Source of the DNA: a virus | UHGV virus genome: UHGV-0122002 | DNA length: 64,000 nucleotides | Strand: one strand, 5' to 3' | Shown here: piece by piece, positions 3,279 to 14,036 of the stretch | How the letters are laid out: every line of letters begins with the position of its first letter | Position numbering within the stretch: the first letter of the stretch is position 1 | Made by a program: the position numbers and the translations under genes | The notes under the pieces: generated by a model | The model's input: the letters and a program-made list of their open reading frames with translations, nothing else | The model's database searches: none | Told to the model about the DNA's origin: nothing

Positions 3279-3718
3279 TTGGCTGGGGTGTATGCGTTCT
3301 TGCGTTAGCCTTAGCCGATCGCTATTTGCTAAAACGCAAGGACATCACGCATTTAGAACTTGGTGATGTGGAAATTAAACCGGGTTTCATCCGGGTGCCG
3401 TTCAAATACCGGTCTAAATTCCCGTTTTTGCGCGGCGCAACGGTCAGATATTGGATCCGCGATGTTCAGAAGCCGACGACAGTGATTGAAGGCGAACAAC
3501 GTTGTTTGACGTCGGCTGAACAGGGCGAAAACAGTGAATGGTTGTACATACCCACTGAATATATGGGTAAAGGAGAGCGACTGTGGCATTTCAACGTCAT
3601 GGTTACGCATGGCGACTCGTTCATTAACCCGTTGTATCGGATTTTCCCTGTTACTCAGCAAATCCGCAGAAGTTACGTAATAAATCTCGCACAGGATGTG
3701 TCAGATGACGAAAAATAA
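3275..3718 (+). CDS. Lysis regulator candidate (P1 LydB-like by position)
   Basis: 147 aa, start overlaps previous stop; RBS GGGAGG; no catalytic motifs recognised. Confidence 0.4.
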   Translation: MIGWGVCVLALALADRYLLKRKDITHLELGDVEIKPGFIRVPFKYRSKFPFLRGATVRYWIRDVQKPTTVIEGEQRCLTSAEQGENSEWLYIPTEYMGKGERLWHFNVMVTHGDSFINPLYRIFPVTQQIRRSYVINLAQDVSDDEK

Positions 3719-4307
3719 GTATGCAACGGTCGATTTTGACCAGGTTAATGAAAAGGGGCTGAAATCCCTTATCGCGGCGATCAATAAAACCGGTGTTACG
3801 GTAATTGAGGTTGACTCCAGCAACCGCGCAACAACGAAAGATGGCGTTAAAGTTAAAACCGCAAAGCTGGTTCTTAACGACGGACAAATTCTTGCCATAC
3901 AGGTAAACGATACTGGCGATATATCGTCTGTGAGGCTGAATGGAAAAGCTATTCCTAACGCTCAATCGCCGGATATCAAGACGCTTGGTACCGTCATGGG
4001 GCAAGCGGCCCGCAAAAACTCCGCAAAATTCCAGAAATCACTGATCGCCAAAGCGAAGCGTGTTGCCAATCCGGTAGACAAGAAACCGGCAGTAAAATCC
4101 AACTTTCAGCGCCTGCAAGAGGCAAAACAGCGGAATGCTCAGGTGGTTGCCGCTTATAAATCAGCGCAGAACTCGGTGTCTTTCAATCAACAGCAGATCA
4201 CTGATTTGCGGGCGAAGCTGGATAAGGAGACAGGCCGACTCAATAACGAAAAGGCCCGAAATGGCGAACTCAAACGCCGTCTTAAGCAACTGAAAGCAGG
4301 AAATTAA
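3705..4307 (+). CDS. hdf: Hdf-like protein (shares a KNSAKFQ segment with DarA)
   Basis: 200 aa from the ATG at 3705 (RBS AGGA 8 nt upstream); contains GQAARKNSAKFQKSLIAKAK resembling the DarA segment LAEKNSAKFQRAQKKKK; immediately upstream of darA. Confidence 0.6.
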   Translation: MTKNKYATVDFDQVNEKGLKSLIAAINKTGVTVIEVDSSNRATTKDGVKVKTAKLVLNDGQILAIQVNDTGDISSVRLNGKAIPNAQSPDIKTLGTVMGQAARKNSAKFQKSLIAKAKRVANPVDKKPAVKSNFQRLQEAKQRNAQVVAAYKSAQNSVSFNQQQITDLRAKLDKETGRLNNEKARNGELKRRLKQLKAGN

Positions 4308-4308
4308 C

Positions 4309-6228
4309 ATGGAACAGTTCAATATCAATAAAGGGGTGACGATCAAGCCTGGGCTTGACGTGCTTCCCCCGCCAGTGACTGATGATGAATATCGCGCATT
4401 AATGGCCGGTGAGGACCGCTATCTGATGACGGAATCCAACACCCTGGAGGAAATCGAGGCTACGTTCTTCTATGACACGCCGATCCACTGGTGTGCTACG
4501 GATTTACTGGAGGCGATTAGTTCTACTCGTTTGCAGTTACACCGGACCATGCAGGCATTTGTCCGGGCATTGAACCAGAAGCTGAATGGTACCGGAATCT
4601 CTGCGGGGAGTGATAAAACGGGGGATGTGGCCCAGAGCGGCGCGCGCGCGATCGGCGGTGCTGAAATTGGCCGGGCACGTAACGTTAACGGGCTGCCGGT
4701 CCTGCCAGCCATTATTCCGCTCAGTGATGGTCAGACTATCAGCATTCTGTTTCATAGCCCGACAGCGGAAAACCGGATCACCAATAGCGATACGCTGATT
4801 GCTTTCCAGTTCTTACTGAATAAAAAAGACGTTACTCATACCGTTGCTCCGATGAGTGGACGTGATATGACGCTGGCGCAGGTCACCATGAAACTTGCCA
4901 ACCTTGCAGAGAAAAACTCGGCAAAATTCCAGCGTGCGCAGAAGAAGAAAAAAGCCCTGGTTGATGAAATAACCCAACTACAGGCTGACAGTGACCAGAA
5001 AGAGGATGCCATGAGCGACCTCGCGGATCAGGTGACAGCGGTAGAAGGGCAGAAGGTAGATCTGGAGCAGAAAATTAACGCTGTTGCATCGGAAGCGGAT
5101 TCTCTTTATGAAGAGAATGAGCGTTTGCAGACGGAGATTGATCAGCTCAATCGCACAGGTGGGCGCGATACCATTGATCCAGCGGGGATGACTGGTGGGC
5201 ACTCGCGCGCGCTGACGGATCGCCTTGCCAGTATCAAAAATCGTATGCATATGAACGGGGAAGTGACGCTCAGTAATGGAGCATCAATGAAGCAATTCAT
5301 TGAGGACGGCGAAGGGTATATCCAGTTAACCGATTCGGATGGCAGCGTGTACATGATCAAGGCTAAATCCATACAGGGTGTGGACATGGCAGATGCGATC
5401 GGCAAGCTGTTTAAAGCCTATAAAGCGGGTAATGTATCGGAATATCTGGTCCAACCAGAAGAACATAAACCGGAAAACGTCGAACCTGAACCAGCGGAGG
5501 ATACCGGTAGCTCTTCGCCTGAACCAGAAGTCTCTGTAGGTGCATATCGATATGCCTTGCAAATGCGTCCGGCGGCCCCTGGCGCAATACCTGAAGGTAA
5601 CAAAGCAATTCTGCCGCGCCCTGATGAAGGTGACCCGTATTATGAATATGCACGCTACGGCATTGCTACTTACGATACCCCGCTTTCTGATCAGCAAATG
5701 AGTGAGTACGACCTGAAGTTATTGCCTCGCGAGGATTCTTTCGACTTCCTGGCGAAGACACTTACTAATGGTCCGTTTGGCAAATATGCACAAAAAGCTC
5801 TGGATCTGGCCACCAGCTCACCAGACGAGTTCCGCGTAATGCTGAAAACTCAGTTTCAAAAAACTTTCCCCAATATTGCGTTTCCGGGGGGCGCTGGCAC
5901 CGAGAAAATGGTGCAGAGCATGATCAATGCATTGCAGGCCGAAGTCGGTGAGATTACTCAGCCAGAACCTGCCCCGGCACAGCCTGATGAAACGGTTAGC
6001 GAAGCAGATGCAGAGGCTAATAAAGCCATTGAATATCTCAATAACGTGATGGATATGCAAAGCACTGACATGGCGGAGATCCGTAACGCCCGGGGTAATG
6101 TCCGGGAAGCGATTGCAGCCCTTCAGGCTGCCGGGCGTTTTGAGGAAAACGAAGAGCTGGTTAATGGCGCTGCTCGCCACCTGGCTGATCTGCTGGTAGC
6201 AATCCAGAAAGCGGGGGTAGCGGCATGA
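4309..6228 (+). CDS. darA: DarA-like capsid internal anti-restriction protein
   Basis: 639 aa (the size of P1 DarA), in the hdf-darA-ddrA-ddrB order, coiled-coil centre; assignment by size and synteny recalled from memory. Confidence 0.7.
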   Translation: MEQFNINKGVTIKPGLDVLPPPVTDDEYRALMAGEDRYLMTESNTLEEIEATFFYDTPIHWCATDLLEAISSTRLQLHRTMQAFVRALNQKLNGTGISAGSDKTGDVAQSGARAIGGAEIGRARNVNGLPVLPAIIPLSDGQTISILFHSPTAENRITNSDTLIAFQFLLNKKDVTHTVAPMSGRDMTLAQVTMKLANLAEKNSAKFQRAQKKKKALVDEITQLQADSDQKEDAMSDLADQVTAVEGQKVDLEQKINAVASEADSLYEENERLQTEIDQLNRTGGRDTIDPAGMTGGHSRALTDRLASIKNRMHMNGEVTLSNGASMKQFIEDGEGYIQLTDSDGSVYMIKAKSIQGVDMADAIGKLFKAYKAGNVSEYLVQPEEHKPENVEPEPAEDTGSSSPEPEVSVGAYRYALQMRPAAPGAIPEGNKAILPRPDEGDPYYEYARYGIATYDTPLSDQQMSEYDLKLLPREDSFDFLAKTLTNGPFGKYAQKALDLATSSPDEFRVMLKTQFQKTFPNIAFPGGAGTEKMVQSMINALQAEVGEITQPEPAPAQPDETVSEADAEANKAIEYLNNVMDMQSTDMAEIRNARGNVREAIAALQAAGRFEENEELVNGAARHLADLLVAIQKAGVAA

Positions 6229-7937: not shown

Positions 7938-10925
7938 ATGAGCTTAAGCGATCAGGTGGTAATGGCCACCAGCATAGAAACGCTGATCGAGCTGCTAAAG
8001 AACCTGCCCGATTATGGGCGGGTTTCGTATGTGGTGACAGCGAAGGGAGACGAGGTAAAAACAGCGTTTGATATCGTCGATGCCTCAGCTCTTTTGGTAT
8101 CCAATACTCTGGATGGGAAAATTAATCCTGACTATCCCCAGGAACTTCAACCGCGCGACCGGACCCGCGCATCCAGCCTTCTTCAGGTTAACCAGATATC
8201 CAAAGATTTGCGGCCTGCTCAGCTTACTGATTCCGGTTTATCCAGCCATGGCGCGCCGATAATTGGTGAGGACAATGCCGTTGAGTCAGGTAATGGACGG
8301 ACCATGGGGATCATCAAAGCCTATCAGGACGGCAATGCGGATCGGTATCGTGAGTACCTGATTGAACATGCGACCGAATTCGGCATACCTCCTGAAAAGG
8401 TTGAATCAATGACGGCTCCGGTACTGGTGCGCCGCCGGTTAACTAAGGTTGACCGTGTTCAGTTTGCCAAGGACTCAAATATTTCTGATCTCCAGGAAAT
8501 GGCAGCCAGTGAAAAGGCTTTTGTTGATGCCGACAGCATAACACCGGCGATGATGGCGTTGTTTAACCCGTCAGAAAGTGGAGATCTGCTTAGCCGCAGT
8601 AATGACGCGTTTATTCGCGGATTTATGACGCAAGTTGGTGCCACACAGGCGGCTGGCCTTGTAACTGAAGATGGGCGACCAACACGGCAACTTGTAGACC
8701 GTATACAAAACGCGATCTTTGCCAAGGCATATAAGGATGCGCGCCTGGTAAGGATGGTTGCAGAAGAACCTGATCCGGATATGCGTAATGTTCTGACGGC
8801 GCTTAATGCGGCAGCCAATGATTTTGTCCAGATGCAGGCTTTATCAGGAGAAGCGCACAAGCAGGCTGTGACAACTATTGTTGATGGCATTGAGACAGCG
8901 GATAGCCTCGATAAAAAGGCGCTGGCGGCATTGAAAGATGCGGTAGACCTGGTAAGGCAATCGAAGGAGTCAGGCCAGCATATTACCGATGTTATTGCTC
9001 AGGGGGATATGTTCAGCGAAACGGCCCCGGAAGTGAAAGCACTCGCGTTGTTCATCGTCGCGAATAACCGTAGCGCGAAGCGTATGGCCACCGCCTTTAA
9101 ATTGATGGCTCAACGTATCAATGATGAGTTACAGCACCAGGGCCAGGCGCTGGGGGATATGTTTGGCGGTGGTGATGTGTCGTTACAGGATATCCTTCGC
9201 CAGGTGTCTCAGGAACTGGAAAACGAAGGCATGCAAGGGATATCCGGCGGTCTTTTCGAGTCCGTTTCCGGCGGTAGTTACAACGGTGTTGCTCCATATA
9301 CCAGCTTGCTATTACATCGGGCATCCGGCATCAAAGACATTATTCATCTGATCAGGCTGCTTTCCCGTACAGATCCCCAGGATGAACAGCTTGTACAAGT
9401 GCTTGCGCATTTTGTTCGAATGCCTGTTGCCGACGTGAATAAATGGTGCCGATTATTCGGTATCAGCAATTCGTTACTTCGCGGATTGTTAAATCACGCA
9501 TCCTCCCTTGGGCGCGACGGCTTTGATGAGATAGCGCAGGCGATAAAAAACGGAGATATGCCACCAGCTATTGACTGGTTTTCCATTCGCCCAACCAGGG
9601 TGAAAGCATTCCTTAGCGCGGCGCATTCGGCATCACCATTGGCAGAAATGATTCAGAGGTTGTCGCTCATATTCACAGACCATACCGCGTTGGGTGATCT
9701 GACTCTGGACGAGATGAAAGAAGCCTCCATTCAGTGGGCCGATCAACAAAATGAGGTTAACTCAGACTTCTTGCCAGCATTCAGGAAGGCCGTTAGTAAA
9801 GCGGATGATGCCCGTGGAATTCTGAAGGCATTTAAGGCATTGCAAAGTCGGGTTAATAAACATGTCGGTGATATCGATGGGGTAACGGCGGAAGGCAGGG
9901 ATATCCTTAAAGAGCACGGCATAACGCCAGAGTTTATTGATGAGATCAGGACGGATATGCAGCGTGAGGTCGTATCGTCCCTGCAAATCGTAGCCAGAGC
10001 GTTGGCGGATGCTAATCCGAAGAGTGCGGCCATTGTTAACCGGGTTATTGGTGATATTGAAGCATCGGAGGGCATGGGGGCGCTGAAACTCTTCCTTTCG
10101 CGAGCGTTTAATCCTAACGGCAATATTCTCCCTGGCATTATTGGTGAGGCTAAAAAGTATGTCAGTGAAGAAGAACTTGAGCAGCTTGACCAACTACTTA
10201 AGCGATTCTCATATAACCCGCAGATACGCTGGCAAATGAATCAGCGAAGTATGGGTTCGGTCCACGAGAAAGTGTTATCTGCCATGAACAGTGCGATCGC
10301 AAACTCATCCGTATCTGAAGAAAAAGCTCTTGAGTGGGCCGACTCTTTTATCACAGAAGAAGTGGAAGAAGCCCGCGCTGGACAGAATGGTGGGATAGAC
10401 CTGCGCAAGGAACTTGCTGATATTTATCGCCTGACCGGCGGGAAAATATCGACCTTATCAAAGGTAGTTCACCACCAGGGAAGGGCATATGCAAATCTTA
10501 ATGGTGTTGTTGCTGTCAATTTGAACGATGAAAATGCAAGTGCACTGTGGCACGAGCTGGGTCATCATCTTGAGTACAGTAACCCTGGTTTGTTAGAGAA
10601 AGCCCGGTCATTCCTGAAGGCCAATGTTGAAGGGGATAAGCCATCTTTCGTCAATATCGGTGGGCGTGGCAAGCCTGAATGGTGCTTCAGATCTCGATTG
10701 AGTAATATTTATATGGCGAAGGTATACCCGCCAGCCTCAGTAAGTAACACCGGGAAAATTCGGCAGAAATCACCGACTATTTCCAAAACGTCAGCAACGG
10801 AAGTATTCTCTATGGCTCTTCAGTTGTATCATGACAAAGAGGCCGCTGCCGCATCACTGATGAATGGTGACGGATTGCTGGAACTGTTATTAGGTGTGGC
10901 AAAGGAGCTAAATAATGCAGATTAA
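7938..10925 (+). CDS. ddrB: DdrB-like large dar-operon protein with an HExxH motif
   Basis: 995 aa; WHELGHHLEYSNPG at residue ~872 (bases 10551-10568); position after ddrA; name by synteny. Confidence 0.55.
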   Translation: MSLSDQVVMATSIETLIELLKNLPDYGRVSYVVTAKGDEVKTAFDIVDASALLVSNTLDGKINPDYPQELQPRDRTRASSLLQVNQISKDLRPAQLTDSGLSSHGAPIIGEDNAVESGNGRTMGIIKAYQDGNADRYREYLIEHATEFGIPPEKVESMTAPVLVRRRLTKVDRVQFAKDSNISDLQEMAASEKAFVDADSITPAMMALFNPSESGDLLSRSNDAFIRGFMTQVGATQAAGLVTEDGRPTRQLVDRIQNAIFAKAYKDARLVRMVAEEPDPDMRNVLTALNAAANDFVQMQALSGEAHKQAVTTIVDGIETADSLDKKALAALKDAVDLVRQSKESGQHITDVIAQGDMFSETAPEVKALALFIVANNRSAKRMATAFKLMAQRINDELQHQGQALGDMFGGGDVSLQDILRQVSQELENEGMQGISGGLFESVSGGSYNGVAPYTSLLLHRASGIKDIIHLIRLLSRTDPQDEQLVQVLAHFVRMPVADVNKWCRLFGISNSLLRGLLNHASSLGRDGFDEIAQAIKNGDMPPAIDWFSIRPTRVKAFLSAAHSASPLAEMIQRLSLIFTDHTALGDLTLDEMKEASIQWADQQNEVNSDFLPAFRKAVSKADDARGILKAFKALQSRVNKHVGDIDGVTAEGRDILKEHGITPEFIDEIRTDMQREVVSSLQIVARALADANPKSAAIVNRVIGDIEASEGMGALKLFLSRAFNPNGNILPGIIGEAKKYVSEEELEQLDQLLKRFSYNPQIRWQMNQRSMGSVHEKVLSAMNSAIANSSVSEEKALEWADSFITEEVEEARAGQNGGIDLRKELADIYRLTGGKISTLSKVVHHQGRAYANLNGVVAVNLNDENASALWHELGHHLEYSNPGLLEKARSFLKANVEGDKPSFVNIGGRGKPEWCFRSRLSNIYMAKVYPPASVSNTGKIRQKSPTISKTSATEVFSMALQLYHDKEAAAASLMNGDGLLELLLGVAKELNNAD

Positions 10926-11226
10926 AATCGCAGCGCCATTAGGTGGAGATGCCATTATCGAATTTGATGATAATGAAGAAGTTTCCGGGCGTTTAAGCAT
11001 TATCTCCGGTGACATTACCGAGGACATGATCGCTGAAGCCATAGCTGGGGCAAATCCCAATAGCTATATGGGATTCGTTAACACCCTTGATGCTCCCGCA
11101 AGTGATGTTCTCCGAACGCTGCATCTTTACGCTGGCTGGTTTGTTGATTGGCCAGCAGTAGATGGTGGCGATGAGGACGACGACGACGATGATTTTGGTG
11201 ATCATGTAGACCAGATCGTATATTGA
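10915..11226 (+). CDS. Small acidic protein (P1 hxr position), C-terminal poly-Asp tract
   Basis: 103 aa; GGDEDDDDDDFGD near C-terminus; last gene of the operon. Confidence 0.45.
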   Translation: MQIKIAAPLGGDAIIEFDDNEEVSGRLSIISGDITEDMIAEAIAGANPNSYMGFVNTLDAPASDVLRTLHLYAGWFVDWPAVDGGDEDDDDDDFGDHVDQIVY

Positions 11227-11228
11227 AG

Positions 11229-11257
11229 AAATCCCGCCAGTCGGCGGGATTTTTTTT
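11229..11257 (+). terminator. Rho-independent terminator after the dar operon
   Basis: AATCCCGCC-AGTC-GGCGGGATT stem followed by T8. Confidence 0.75.
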
Positions 11258-12038
11258 AATCGCTTTCCACTTCTTCCGTGGTGTTTTCTTGCAGTTCTGT
11301 TAATGCAGCACGACATAGGTTCCGGGCATTGGCTATAGCCACACTTTTGACTTCATCCGTCATCGTGCAGGTAATGTACTGATCGAGTTCTTCAGCGCGG
11401 ATGATGCTTTTGCCAATCAGAAACTGTATTTGCCAGAGCAGATCGGCATCCATAATCAGAATTTCTGCCGGGCCTTCAGGGCCAGCCGGGAAGGAAACAT
11501 AAGACTGTTTGCCCAGGCCGACAACTCGACAACTTGCTTCAAGAATTGCGCGCTTGAGGTCTGACTTTATAACGGAAACAGGTTGATTTTCACCAGTGAT
11601 TACGCCGTTGACATGGAAAGGCATGTAGCTTGAAATACGCTCCACTTTCCACACGCCAGCAAGCGATCCTTCATGCAGCACAATGGGGGTAACCGCGAGT
11701 TTCATCTCACCATATAGCTGCTGGCAGATAGCTGGATTGCTGAATACATCTAAAGGCTCACATTCAAACAGCGGCGCAATCTGCATGAGGTCCATCATGG
11801 TCATCCCTGGGGTACGAGCAGTAATGAATCTGCGCATACCAGTATCCATTGCGCTCCAGATTGCTACACCATGCTTTTTGCTCACTTCTTCAGTAAAGCC
11901 AAGGTGGCACATGATGGTTTTTTCGATAGCCAGAGCAGAGATCGAAACCTTTTCGCCAGGCACACCATCATGATTGATGGTCACTTCGACACTCTGACCA
12001 TTACGCAGGCGGTATTGAATTGCTTTAGTATTTTCCAC
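11256..12038 (-). CDS. Hypothetical protein, distal gene of the ssb operon
   Basis: 260 aa, GTG start 6 bp after the upstream stop; no recognisable motifs. Confidence 0.55.
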   Translation of the reverse strand: MENTKAIQYRLRNGQSVEVTINHDGVPGEKVSISALAIEKTIMCHLGFTEEVSKKHGVAIWSAMDTGMRRFITARTPGMTMMDLMQIAPLFECEPLDVFSNPAICQQLYGEMKLAVTPIVLHEGSLAGVWKVERISSYMPFHVNGVITGENQPVSVIKSDLKRAILEASCRVVGLGKQSYVSFPAGPEGPAEILIMDADLLWQIQFLIGKSIIRAEELDQYITCTMTDEVKSVAIANARNLCRAALTELQENTTEEVESD

Positions 12039-12044
12039 GTTAAA

Positions 12045-12722
12045 TCACTCCACTACAAACCAGTCACATGCCAGTAAGTCGCCTACAGAAGGAACCCACG
12101 GAACAACTACACCTTGTGCATTTTTTAAGGCGAAATAAGCACCATACGGAACGAGGTCGCCGGGGAAATATCCCTTAATGGCTTCCATTCGTGCCGGGTA
12201 CTGTCCTTCAGGAACCAGCCAGCAGAATTGGTTTTCGCCGTTCCACCCGCGTCGGGCAACTTTCTTGCCATCCTTCAGCCACATCAGCGCGTCAGAAAAG
12301 TCGGCTGCTTCAAGGTCGATTTCTTCTTGTAGAGTAGCGATACCGCCAGCAGAAATAGTTACGTCCCTGGCTGTAATGAATGTCACCCCATTGTGACCTT
12401 CAATGCTGAGCGATACCCCATTTTCGAAGAAGTCGTTAGTCCGACTAAAGCCTTCTTCAAATGTTTTTTCTGGTGAATAGGACAGAGATCCGTCCTCATA
12501 AGCGACCAGATATCCGCCAATTTCTGGTCGGTGTTTTTGCAAAAATATTTTATCAACATGGACTTTTACCCCTTCTGGCTCAACGACTTCGATGTTGCAA
12601 AAAAGGACCACATCCATTAGGGCGATAATTTCGATATCTTTGATTTTTGAGGCGCGAACTGTTTTATGGCTTTTGTATTTTGGAAGTGCCGTCAAAAGCT
12701 CTTTCGTTGTCATGTTATTCAT
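12045..12722 (-). CDS. Hypothetical protein with C-terminal DUF2829-like (Tad2-like) domain
   Basis: 225 aa; C-terminal ~85 aa FSDALMWLKDGKKVARRGWNGENQ...VVPWVPSVGDLLACDWFVVE matches the remembered DUF2829 pattern (GKKVRRxGW ... W ... DLLAxDW). Confidence 0.55.
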   Translation of the reverse strand: MNNMTTKELLTALPKYKSHKTVRASKIKDIEIIALMDVVLFCNIEVVEPEGVKVHVDKIFLQKHRPEIGGYLVAYEDGSLSYSPEKTFEEGFSRTNDFFENGVSLSIEGHNGVTFITARDVTISAGGIATLQEEIDLEAADFSDALMWLKDGKKVARRGWNGENQFCWLVPEGQYPARMEAIKGYFPGDLVPYGAYFALKNAQGVVVPWVPSVGDLLACDWFVVE

Positions 12723-12820
12723 AGTCTTTCCTCTGCTTAAAACCTGATGTATTGCGCCTTCAGGTGGGTCAGGAATGTTTTCCCACCAGCGAAAGCAATA
12801 TCTCGGGGGGGGGCTATTCG

Positions 12821-13309
12821 TTAAAACGGAATATCGTCGTCAAAGTCCATTGGAGGTTCGTTATTGGCGTTGCTCTGAGGTTTACCGCCACCACTGTATT
12901 GCTGGTGGTTTTGAGGTTGGTTTGATTGCCCCCAGCCATTTGAGGACTGTGAATCGTCACGGCGAGCGCCGATCATTTGCATGGTGCCGCCCTGGCTGAC
13001 GATAATTTCCGTCGTGTAACGTTCTACACCGGCGTCATCTGTCCACTTACGGGTTTTAAGTTTCCCTTCGATGTAGACCTGAGAACCTTTTCGTAAATAC
13101 TCACTCGCAATTTCAGCAAGTTTTCCGAACAAAACGACTTTATGCCATTCTGTTTGCTCTTTCTGTTGGCCAGTTTGCTTGTCCCGCCATGATTCATTCG
13201 TTGCGATGCTGAGTCTTCCGACCGCGCCGCCATTTGGTATATACCTGATCTCCGGGTCTTGCCCCAGGGTACCAATCAGGATGACTTTGTTTACACCGCG
13301 TTGTGCCAC
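12821..13309 (-). CDS. ssb: Single-stranded DNA-binding protein
   Basis: 162 aa; OB-fold N-terminus [23 protein letters not shown], Gly/Gln-rich linker, acidic tail DFDDDIPF. Confidence 0.95.
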
Positions 13310-13328
13310 TTATCTTACCTAATAAAAT

Positions 13329-13345
13329 AAATTAATTAGAGCAAT
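13329..13345 (-). promoter_or_regulatory. C1 repressor operator-like site upstream of ssb
   Basis: AAATTAATTAGAGCAAT; one mismatch to reverse complement of remembered consensus ATTGCTCTAATAAATTT. Confidence 0.55.
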
Positions 13346-13478
13346 AATGTATATCTTTGAAACGTAGCTAACAAGTGATTTGCATTATCCTGTGCCTTCT
13401 AAAGGGATCGAGTCAGTCGGTATTGGCTGTGAATGGGTGTTTGTCCTGGAGCGTAAAAAATTCGCTTATGAGGTCTTT

Positions 13479-14036
13479 ATGAAGGGAAAAACAGCCGCAG
13501 GAGGCGGTGCAATTTGCGCTATCGCGGTGATGATTACCATCGTGATGGGTAATGGCAATGTGCGAACCAACCAGGCAGGGCTTGAGCTGATTGGTAACGC
13601 TGAAGGTTGCCGACGTGATCCATACATGTGCCCGGCGGGGGTATGGACTGACGGGATCGGTAATACACACGGGGTAACGCCGGGTGTGCGAAAAACCGAC
13701 CAGCAAATCGCCGCTGATTGGGAAAAGAATATCCTGATCGCTGAACGCTGTATTAATCAGCACTTCCGGGGCAAAGACATGCCCGATAATGCCTTCAGTG
13801 CAATGACAAGCGCGGCATTCAATATGGGATGTAATAGCTTACGGACCTACTACAGCAAAGCGCGAGGCATGCGAGTAGAAACGTCCATCCACAAGTGGGC
13901 GCAGAAAGGAGAATGGGTGAATATGTGTAACCATCTCCCTGATTTCGTGAACAGTAACGGCGTGCCCCTGCGAGGTTTAAAGATTCGCCGTGAAAAAGAA
14001 CGCCAGCTTTGCCTGACGGGACTGGTCAATGAATAA
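13479..14036 (+). CDS. lyz: SAR (signal-anchor-release) endolysin, lysozyme family
   Basis: 185 aa from MKGKTAAGGGAICAIAVMITIVMG (Gly/Ala-rich N-terminal membrane segment) followed by lysozyme-like domain; track start at 13380 is probably too far upstream. Confidence 0.85.
   Translation: MKGKTAAGGGAICAIAVMITIVMGNGNVRTNQAGLELIGNAEGCRRDPYMCPAGVWTDGIGNTHGVTPGVRKTDQQIAADWEKNILIAERCINQHFRGKDMPDNAFSAMTSAAFNMGCNSLRTYYSKARGMRVETSIHKWAQKGEWVNMCNHLPDFVNSNGVPLRGLKIRREKERQLCLTGLVNE

Follow-up and report, generated by a model that had tools for sequence, protein, structure and literature searches.

A Tad2-family domain joined to a Dec-like OB fold in the ssb operon of a P1-like phage genome: a likely counter-defence protein

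Introduction

Why does the ssb operon of a P1-like virus genome (UHGV-0122002) contain a gene for a 225-residue protein, and what might this protein do? We addressed this question in one stretch of 64,000 nucleotides of the genome, referred to as the window, to which all coordinates refer. Databases already label the protein as a member of the DUF2829/Tad2 family, and one more Tad2 homologue is not news. P1 is a workhorse phage, and in E. coli and Salmonella P1-like elements have an important role in carrying resistance genes; the presence of a Tad2-like gene may account for differences in host range between laboratory P1 and wild P1-like elements.

Layout and control of the ssb operon

The operon comprises three minus-strand genes between the ssb promoter region and a GC-rich hairpin. 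The reading frames are located where a sequence-only reading of the window had placed them.

13312..13374 (-): ssb promoter region, positions carried over from the P1 annotation (NC_005856, offset 8828)
13329-13345 (-): C1 operator Ossb/Op21, 17 nt, ATTGCTCTAATTAATTT
13312-13317 and 13335-13340 (-): -10 and -35 elements of promoter P1ssb
13346-13351 and 13369-13374 (-): -10 and -35 elements of promoter P2ssb
12821..13309 (-): ssb, 162-aa single-strand DNA-binding protein, first gene of the operon (PF00436 SSB, E 7e-40)
12723..12820 (-): spacer between ssb and the Tad2-like gene (DNA alignments with P1 and SJ46, ORF listing)
12045-12722 (-): gene for the 225-aa protein (ORF listing)
11256..12038 (-): gene for a 260-aa IsaA-like protein (ORF listing)
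11229..11252: GC-rich hairpin between the convergent genes for the 260-aa protein and a 103-aa protein (RNA folding)

The C1 operator and the whole flanking ssb promoter sequence are identical in a DNA alignment to Ossb/Pssb of P1, where Ossb/Op21, P1ssb and P2ssb are annotated, and ssb has 96-99% DNA identity with its counterparts in P1 and SJ46. A generic sigma-70 scan of positions 11100-13500 returned no promoter at all; it also missed the documented ssb promoters of P1, so that its silence on internal promoters is weak evidence. No minus-strand terminator-like site was found within the operon in this range. The identity of the operator supports the earlier proposal of a C1-controlled operon in which the gene for the 225-residue protein would be co-transcribed with ssb.

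The spacer contains what remains of the "leader" ORF, which is annotated in P1 and SJ46, as well as the Shine-Dalgarno sequence GAGGAAAG. It also contains the junction of a deletion of about 100 nt with a run of nine C (on the plus strand G9, at about 12805-12813). Only 6 nt separate the stop codon of the 225-residue reading frame from the GTG start of the 260-residue one, and a GGAG motif is located within the end of the upstream ORF. The hairpin has folding energies of -21.4 kcal/mol on the plus strand (z -5.1) and -17.1 kcal/mol on the minus strand (z -4.1) and is followed by a U-run on the plus strand and by UUUCUUC on the minus strand. It is probably a bidirectional terminator that ends the operon.

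The locus in P1, P7 and P1-type plasmids

The ssb-isaA locus of P1 (Lobocka et al., NC_005856) has the same promoter, operator, ssb, leader, Shine-Dalgarno sequence and ATG as the window. In P1, however, the ATG leads directly into isaA and there is no Tad2-like ORF at the locus; P1 instead has IS1 and isaB downstream. P7 carries a porin gene at this locus. The suggestion that the two genes behind ssb may simply belong to the P1 backbone thus holds for the 260-residue protein, which corresponds to the body of P1 IsaA (95% identical), but not for the 225-residue protein.

About 500 plasmids in PLSDB carry a P1-type ssb, nearly all of them with at least 95% DNA identity, and 266 plasmids encode a homologue of the 225-residue protein (59-100% protein identity). 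Such a homologue is present in about half of the P1-type plasmids. Its three modules, an OB domain, a stalk and a Tad2 domain, recombine independently among alleles. The gene is accessory and fast-evolving and not part of the P1 backbone. Because P1 lacks it at this locus while about half of the natural P1-type phage-plasmids carry it, in many shuffled alleles, a counter-defence hotspot appears to lie downstream of ssb.

The Tad2-like domain and its pocket

The usual Tad2 protein is a short, single domain of about 80-150 residues. The window protein departs from this architecture with 225 residues in three modules.

12432..12695 (-): residues 10-97, Dec-like OB-fold domain
12303..12431 (-): residues 98-140, variable, β-rich stalk or linker with a conserved EIDLE motif at its end
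12048..12302 (-): residues 141-225, Tad2-like domain (PF11195 match)
12045-12047 (-): stop codon

The sequence-only reading had assigned the C-terminal segment of about 85 residues to DUF2829 and had named an HMM search and a fold comparison with Tad2 as the means to check this. PF11195 (Tad2-like, formerly DUF2829) matches residues 141-224 over profile positions 2-73 of 73 with an E-value of 1.6e-22 and a score of 80.2 bits (gathering cut-off 25), well above what chance would produce. In a phmmer search the significant matches among PDB sequences were Tad2 proteins only: ModTad2 (9eib, 6e-20), Tad2 (8v3e, 8e-20), AcrIIA7/HgmTad2 (8kbi, 4e-10), SPO1 Gp34.65 (7e-9) and SptTad2 (5e-8). A structure comparison of the model showed that the predicted fold of the C-terminal domain agrees with solved Tad2 structures. 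Since the profile match is significant and the predicted fold is Tad2-like, the assignment stands, and, as judged from profile and model, the C-terminal part of the protein clearly belongs to the Tad2 family. None of the 225-, 260- and 103-residue proteins had a match in PADLOC or NCBIfam.

Tad2 proteins are homotetramers built from two V-shaped dimers, and the ligand pockets are formed at the interfaces. In SPO1 Tad2 the ligand is contacted by W25, N26, W73, S76 and D79; the pocket of HgmTad2 involves W21/N22 and S90/D93, and gcADPR binding is lost on mutation. Residues W160, N161, W209, S212 and D215 of the window protein align to these ligand-contact residues. W160, W209 and D215 are conserved in all 72 homologues compared, S212 in 71 and N161 in 62 of them. 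With SPO1 Tad2 (Gp34.65, PDB 8SME) and HgmTad2/AcrIIA7 (8KBI) the window domain therefore shares the Pfam family, the fold and the gcADPR-contacting W, N, W, S and D at an identity of about 36%.

From this homology we infer a role in counter-defence. Our preferred reading, which we consider likely, is that the gene serves as an accessory, early counter-defence gene whose Tad2 domain would sequester TIR-made alarm molecules and so act against Thoeris.

The Dec-like OB domain and stalk

The N-terminal part of about 135 residues, previously taken as unrecognised, is in fact recognisable as a homologue of the decoration protein Dec of phage L, with OB fold and stalk (profile E 4.6e-7). Both proteins have a Dec-type OB-fold N-terminal domain (Dec: PDB 6E3C). 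Dec, however, is a 134-residue, capsid-binding protein that trimerises via its C-terminal spike, a three-stranded β-helix, and lacks a Tad2 domain, whereas the window gene is part of an early operon and has relatives near sponge genes. Residues 98-123 can be aligned with Dec residues ~100-127, where the spike begins; their pLDDT in the monomer model is low (50-59). Many homologues have unrelated linkers in place of the stalk, and among alleles it is exchanged without regard to the modules on either side. If the sponge is a tetramer, a trimer-like stalk may not match it in stoichiometry. Hadary et al. (bioRxiv 10.1101/2025.08.24.671296) dropped Tad2 homologues with a 6E3C-like domain from their screen and gave no reason; the OB-stalk-Tad2 architecture was thus deliberately omitted from the sole systematic Tad2 screen.

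The OB domain is characterised by the signature LPxYKCHKVVRAxKI...GGYLVxYEDGYxSYSPxxAFExGY and occurs mostly as a stand-alone phage protein of 80-110 residues. In proteins without Tad2 it is fused to Sequestin (PF21825; P0206, P0253, P0260) or to the Acb2/Tad1 hairpin domain (PF24729; P0278), and four proteins combine OB, Tad2 and Sequestin (P0062, P0099, P0109, P0114). At another locus (L011) a stand-alone OB gene is flanked by a stand-alone Tad2-like gene and a gene of the Acb4 family. The homologue in SopranoGao (gp55) is located among small early genes and regulators, outside the structural module. As a separate observation, the OB domain is probably different from Lockin, a hexameric cog reported absent from INPHARED; the OB domain is found in SJ46 and SopranoGao.

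Because of its fusions with Sequestin and the Acb2/Tad1 hairpin domain, the OB domain may itself be an anti-defence module. It might tentatively be regarded as a previously uncharacterised family of such modules, possibly a new signal sponge. The domain is joined independently to sponge families of three unrelated kinds (Tad2, Sequestin and the Acb2/Tad1 hairpin domain) and is located in islands of sponge genes. Applied to the window protein, this leads to an extension of the preferred reading that we regard as possible, if doubtful, namely a protein of dual or multiple specificity in which the OB domain would bind a signal of its own, or act against defence in another way, and widen the range of systems neutralised. 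The mostly stand-alone occurrence of the domain and the gene arrangement at L011 argue in its favour, as does the parallel to the sponge-sponge fusions Acb4-Tad2 and Tad2-Sequestin (Tal et al. bioRxiv 10.1101/2025.07.12.664507), in which Tad2 is likewise joined to another small phage module. Sequestin itself was uncovered by the same logic, that is, by its fusion to known sponges (10.1101/2025.07.12.664507). In some relatives of the window protein Sequestin is present as an additional, third module, whereas the partner of Tad2 in the window protein is the Dec-like OB domain, a candidate sponge only. Against the extension, the only solved relative of the OB domain binds capsids, and the fusions could merely reflect a role in scaffolding or oligomerisation. 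If the extension holds, the window protein would be an inhibitor with two warheads, and its conserved 260-residue partner could likewise take part in anti-defence. Through its pattern of fusions and neighbourhoods the OB domain becomes a candidate, open to direct testing, for a new family of anti-defence domains.

Ligand specificity

Specificities of Tad2 proteins are known to vary widely, and the signals bound include those of Pycsar, of CBASS and of type IV Thoeris. Of the sponge homologues assayed, about one in four inhibited none of seven systems. Three of the four positions that directly contact adenine in SPO1 Tad2 (I63, T65, T78) differ in the window protein, and two of its water-coordinating positions, D67 and H71, are changed as well (N201 for T65, Q203 for D67, V207 for H71, G214 for T78). 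At the positions equivalent to T65, D67 and H71, ModTad2 has T, D and A. The ligand specificity is uncertain because of these differences from SPO1 Tad2.

The closest tested relative is Tad2_68, an IMG/VR metagenomic protein (Hadary et al. bioRxiv 10.1101/2025.08.24.671296, Table S2) with 68% identity over 82 residues (window residues 141-222). It shares the equally short insertion, the PSxGD motif and the glycine at the adenine-contacting position T78/T92 (T78 in SPO1 Tad2, G214 in the window protein) but, unlike the window protein, is a stand-alone protein of 87 residues without OB domain or stalk. In the published assays Tad2_68 was positive for types I and II Thoeris and negative for type IV, two CBASS and two Pycsar systems (10.1101/2025.08.24.671296). 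ModTad2/MoTad2 from a Myroides odoratus prophage (PDB 9EIB), a single-domain tetramer of 88 residues per chain, is a sponge for His-ADPR that binds cUMP and cCMP too, and does not inhibit type I Thoeris.

These comparisons bear on the alternative that the Tad2 fold is directed not at Thoeris but at Pycsar or CBASS nucleotides, or that it acts as an anti-CRISPR like the relatives of AcrIIA7. MoTad2, 45% identical to the window domain, has a second pocket that accepts cUMP and cCMP, HgmTad2/AcrIIA7 binds cyclic dinucleotides, and the adenine-contacting residues are unlike those of SPO1 Tad2; in addition, the legend of a supplementary figure (Fig. S2A) describes laboratory P1, which has no such gene at the locus, as restricted by an E. 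coli Pycsar system. The cyclic-dinucleotide pocket of the HgmTad2/SptTad2 type, however, needs an insertion of 35-41 residues between β2 and β5. The insertion of the window protein comprises 24 residues (PEGQYPARMEAIKGYFPGDLVPYG), as in SPO1 Tad2 and MoTad2, and the long insertion of the cyclic-dinucleotide-binding type, present in HgmTad2, is missing. Together with the negative results of Tad2_68 for the two Pycsar systems and the two CBASS systems and a section heading in Li et al. according to which HgmTad2 does not inhibit SpyCas9, this makes a target other than Thoeris unlikely.

Proposed mechanism

A role in virion decoration, with the OB domain and a trimeric stalk on the capsid and the Tad2-like domain displayed outside for adhesion or stabilisation, is highly improbable: the gene belongs to the early, C1-repressed ssb operon with no late promoter in front of it, the sole annotated late promoter in this region of P1 (LPlyz) faces the opposite direction, the SopranoGao and L011 homologues have small early or accessory genes as neighbours, the stalk is swapped for unrelated linkers in many homologues, normal P1 virions are made without the gene, and the partner domains of the OB domain are intracellular sponges.

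For the preferred reading, sequestration of Thoeris signals, we propose the following course of events. Once infection or induction relieves C1 repression, the operon would be transcribed from the ssb promoters and the cell would fill with the three-module protein consisting of Dec-like OB domain, variable stalk and, at the C-terminus, Tad2 domain. The latter most likely assembles into oligomers in the manner of the solved Tad2 proteins. Signals derived from ADP-ribose and produced by TIR proteins would then be bound in the canonical pocket between protomers, which would be formed by W160/N161 and W209/S212/D215. Likely ligands are 3'cADPR (type I Thoeris) and/or His-ADPR (type II Thoeris). 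With its signal sequestered, the Thoeris effector would stay off.

The 260-residue IsaA-like partner

No Pfam match up to E = 1 was obtained for the 260-residue protein, and a scan of its family gave none for it up to E = 10; the other family members showed only scattered, single-member Pfam matches with E of at least 0.17. A profile of the family had no match among PDB sequences, and a Foldseek search of BFVD returned only the protein's own P1 fragment. In D6-like elements the gene accompanies the Tad2 gene. A distant IsaA homologue (L008, 33% identical) is preceded by a gene that has no relationship to the OB or Tad2 modules, and the linkage between Tad2 and IsaA thus extends only down to about 42% IsaA identity.

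Operon structure

The window is a P1-like phage-plasmid. Over the segment 11200–13400 it shares 99.5% identity with Salmonella phage SJ46; identity to P1 is 96%, and the P1 match spans just 66% of the segment. Three ORFs are arranged head-to-tail on the minus strand.

13329–13345: C1 operator Ossb/Op21, from identity to the annotated P1 operator
12821–13309, minus: ssb (PF00436, E = 7e-40)
12045–12722, minus: 225-aa ORF, from the ORF listing
11256–12038, minus: 260-aa ORF, from the ORF listing
About 11229–11252: strong hairpin between the operon and a convergent 103-aa gene

The DNA 5' of ssb is identical to P1 through the annotated Ossb/Op21 and the promoters P1ssb and P2ssb. Only 6 nt separate the 225-aa stop codon from the GTG start of the 260-aa ORF, with a GGAG within the 3' end of the 225-aa ORF. 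A minus-strand scan found no terminator-like site inside the operon. Given the ORF positions, the operator, the 6-nt gap, the closing hairpin and the absence of an internal terminator, the operon described in the sequence-only reading stands.

The convergent 103-aa ORF (10915–11226, plus strand) has a poly-Asp tail. Its counterparts in SJ46 and P1 carry the annotation "Hxr, putative repressor / Xre homologue". Since it had no match in Pfam, NCBIfam or PADLOC and was assigned to phrog_2292 (function unknown), this label looks weakly founded.

The Tad2-like domain

Residues 141–224 of the 225-aa protein match PF11195 (Tad2-like, formerly DUF2829) with an E-value of 1.6e-22; the score is 80 bits, the cut-off 25 bits. 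Judged by sequence, the domain is real; the earlier DUF2829 assignment of the C-terminal segment was correct, and the first interpretation is essentially right. The core finding is a further member of a known family, already labelled in databases. In a PDB sequence search Tad2 proteins were the only significant matches, led by ModTad2 (9EIB, 6e-20) and followed by HgmTad2/AcrIIA7, SPO1 Gp34.65 and SptTad2.

SPO1 Tad2 contacts 1''-3' gcADPR through W25, N26, W73, S76 and D79, and binding by HgmTad2 requires the equivalents W21/N22 and S90/T92/D93. W160, N161, W209, S212 and D215 of the 225-aa protein align with these positions. Among 72 homologues W160, W209 and D215 are invariant, S212 occurs in 71 and N161 in 62. 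Adenine-side positions that differ in the 225-aa protein include N201, Q203, V207 and G214. The β2-β5 insertion (24 residues) is of the short type found in SPO1 Tad2 and MoTad2, whereas HgmTad2 forms its cyclic-dinucleotide pocket from an insertion of 35–41 residues.

The closest assayed relative comes from Hadary et al. (bioRxiv 10.1101/2025.08.24.671296, Table S2; column reading confirmed from that paper's Methods): Tad2_68, a metagenomic protein of 87 aa. It is 68% identical to residues 141–222; identity to the Tad2 domain is 45% for MoTad2 and 36% for SPO1 Tad2. Tad2_68 was positive for Thoeris types I and II and negative on type IV Thoeris, two CBASS and two Pycsar systems. MoTad2 sequesters His-ADPR, and a second pocket takes cUMP and cCMP. 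From this activity profile and these ligands, the 225-aa protein would most likely bind 3'cADPR and/or His-ADPR, in a family whose ligand specificity is labile.

Comparison of the accessory locus

P1 IsaA (320 aa; L001 3001–3963), compared with window 11256–12038 and 12723–12820, consists, by protein and DNA alignment, of a 56-aa leader and a 95%-identical copy of the 260-aa protein. The leader, Shine-Dalgarno sequence and ATG are common to P1, the window and SJ46. In P1, isaA follows the shared ATG at once, a clean absence of the 225-aa ORF, and is itself followed by IS1 and isaB. The suggestion that both genes are P1 backbone thus applies to the 260-aa gene and fails for the 225-aa gene, which by these alignments is accessory. 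Its absence from classical P1 at a polymorphic hotspot is one addition of the present analysis. The name isaA is used inconsistently: in P1 it denotes the leader/260-aa chimera, in SJ46 the 260-aa gene, with the Tad2-like gene there called "hypothetical".

In P7 (L003 2650–3765) an nmpC/OmpC-type porin gene 3' of ssb replaces the Tad2 and IsaA genes, a further sign of a cargo hotspot. In D6 (L004 3265–4997) and D6-like elements (L006 2808–4777, L010 3064–4813), a cassette of dUTPase, Tad2-like and IsaA-like genes adjoins cre and c1. The dUTPase and Tad2 domain form one ORF in L010 and in homologue P0056, whose Tad2 domain is 98–100% identical to that of the window.

At 12795–12820, directly following the ssb stop codon (TAA in the window, TGA in SJ46 and P1), ~100 nt present in those two relatives are missing. 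The junction carries a 9-base homopolymer (C9; G9 on the plus strand, about 12805–12813), and the loss may be genuine or an artefact of assembly or sequencing. Missing with it are the first ~28 codons of the leader ORF, annotated in P1 as the N-terminus of IsaA and in SJ46 as that of a 281-aa protein; the predicted functional reading in the window is therefore the 225-aa form, which has a Shine-Dalgarno sequence of its own.

PLSDB holds about 500 plasmids with a P1-type ssb, nearly all at a DNA identity of at least 95%. Across all PLSDB plasmids, 266 carry a 225-aa homologue (59–100% protein identity), full-length in 233. Variation in the OB, stalk and Tad2 modules is independent: in several alleles a Tad2 domain of 100% identity is paired with an OB domain of only 55%, and the converse was also seen. 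Such presence/absence and mosaicism is the pattern expected of a counter-defence locus.

The N-terminal OB domain and stalk

A profile of 23 N-terminal regions matched the phage L decoration protein Dec (E = 4.6e-7; positions 10–123 against Dec residues 14–127) over the OB fold and the start of the spike. The N-terminal ~135 residues, previously called unrecognised, are thus recognisable as Dec-like. In Dec the OB fold (residues 10–77) is the capsid-binding part, and residues 78–134 form a three-stranded β-helix in the trimer only, being disordered in the monomer. The low pLDDT of the predicted stalk fits this behavior. A possibly trimeric stalk together with a tetrameric Tad2 core in one protein would pose a structural puzzle. 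This three-module variant architecture is part of what the analysis adds. Hadary et al. left out Tad2, Tad1 and Acb2 homologues with a PF21825 or 6E3C (Dec) domain, so the OB-Tad2 architecture had been noticed earlier and lay outside their screen.

In some homologues (P0057, P0100, P0106, P0110, P0115) the OB and Tad2 modules are separated by an additional small domain with the motif WRKKPVVIEA...GDWIIxGVKGELYPCKPDIFAATYEP. It had no Pfam match and may represent one more shuffled module.

When residues 8–97, the OB domain on its own, were used as query, most homologues were stand-alone proteins of 80–110 aa. Fusions lacking Tad2 comprise OB-Sequestin (PF21825; P0206, P0253, P0260) and OB with the Acb2/Tad1 hairpin domain (PF24729; P0278); OB-Tad2-Sequestin triple proteins occur among the Tad2 homologues. 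In the P22-like metagenomic contig L011, a small-gene island upstream of terminase (3319–5445) includes the three genes listed below, the OB gene lying two genes after the Tad2-like gene and four before the Acb4-family gene.

3319–3594: stand-alone Tad2-like gene
4001–4258: stand-alone OB gene
5167–5445: Acb4-family gene (PF13876)

The OB-Tad2 gene of Klebsiella phage SopranoGao lies among small genes and regulators outside the structural module. Sequestin itself was found through its fusion to Tad2 and Acb4 (Tal et al., bioRxiv 10.1101/2025.07.12.664507). By the same token, fusion to sponges (phage proteins sequestering immune signals) makes the Dec-like OB domain a candidate anti-defence module, a testable hypothesis that the analysis adds. 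The paper collection searched contained no characterisation of this domain.

Proposed function

The best explanation, which we consider rather probable, is that an early, C1-repressed accessory gene in the ssb operon encodes the 225-aa protein, whose Tad2 domain would sequester Thoeris ADP-ribose-derived signals. The OB domain could extend this as a second warhead, a tentative proposal. It is unlikely that the ligands belong to another class (Pycsar or CBASS signals) or that the protein has an anti-CRISPR role, given the short β2-β5 insertion and the Tad2_68 profile. That the protein decorates virions, as its likeness to Dec might suggest, is very improbable: the gene sits in an early operon, the neighbourhoods of homologues are non-structural, the stalk is replaceable and P1 virions are normal without the gene.

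The 260-aa partner

We regard the 260-aa gene as linked to the Tad2-like gene, with its function unassigned; the protein had no match in Pfam, NCBIfam, PADLOC or PDB sequences. Its family is small (30 representatives at E ≤ 0.001 among 1.84 billion representative sequences). Homologues down to 42–50% identity, at a different genomic site, still adjoin a Tad2-like gene with a 6-nt gap; at 33% identity the homologue is no longer beside one. P1 retains the 260-aa protein without Tad2.
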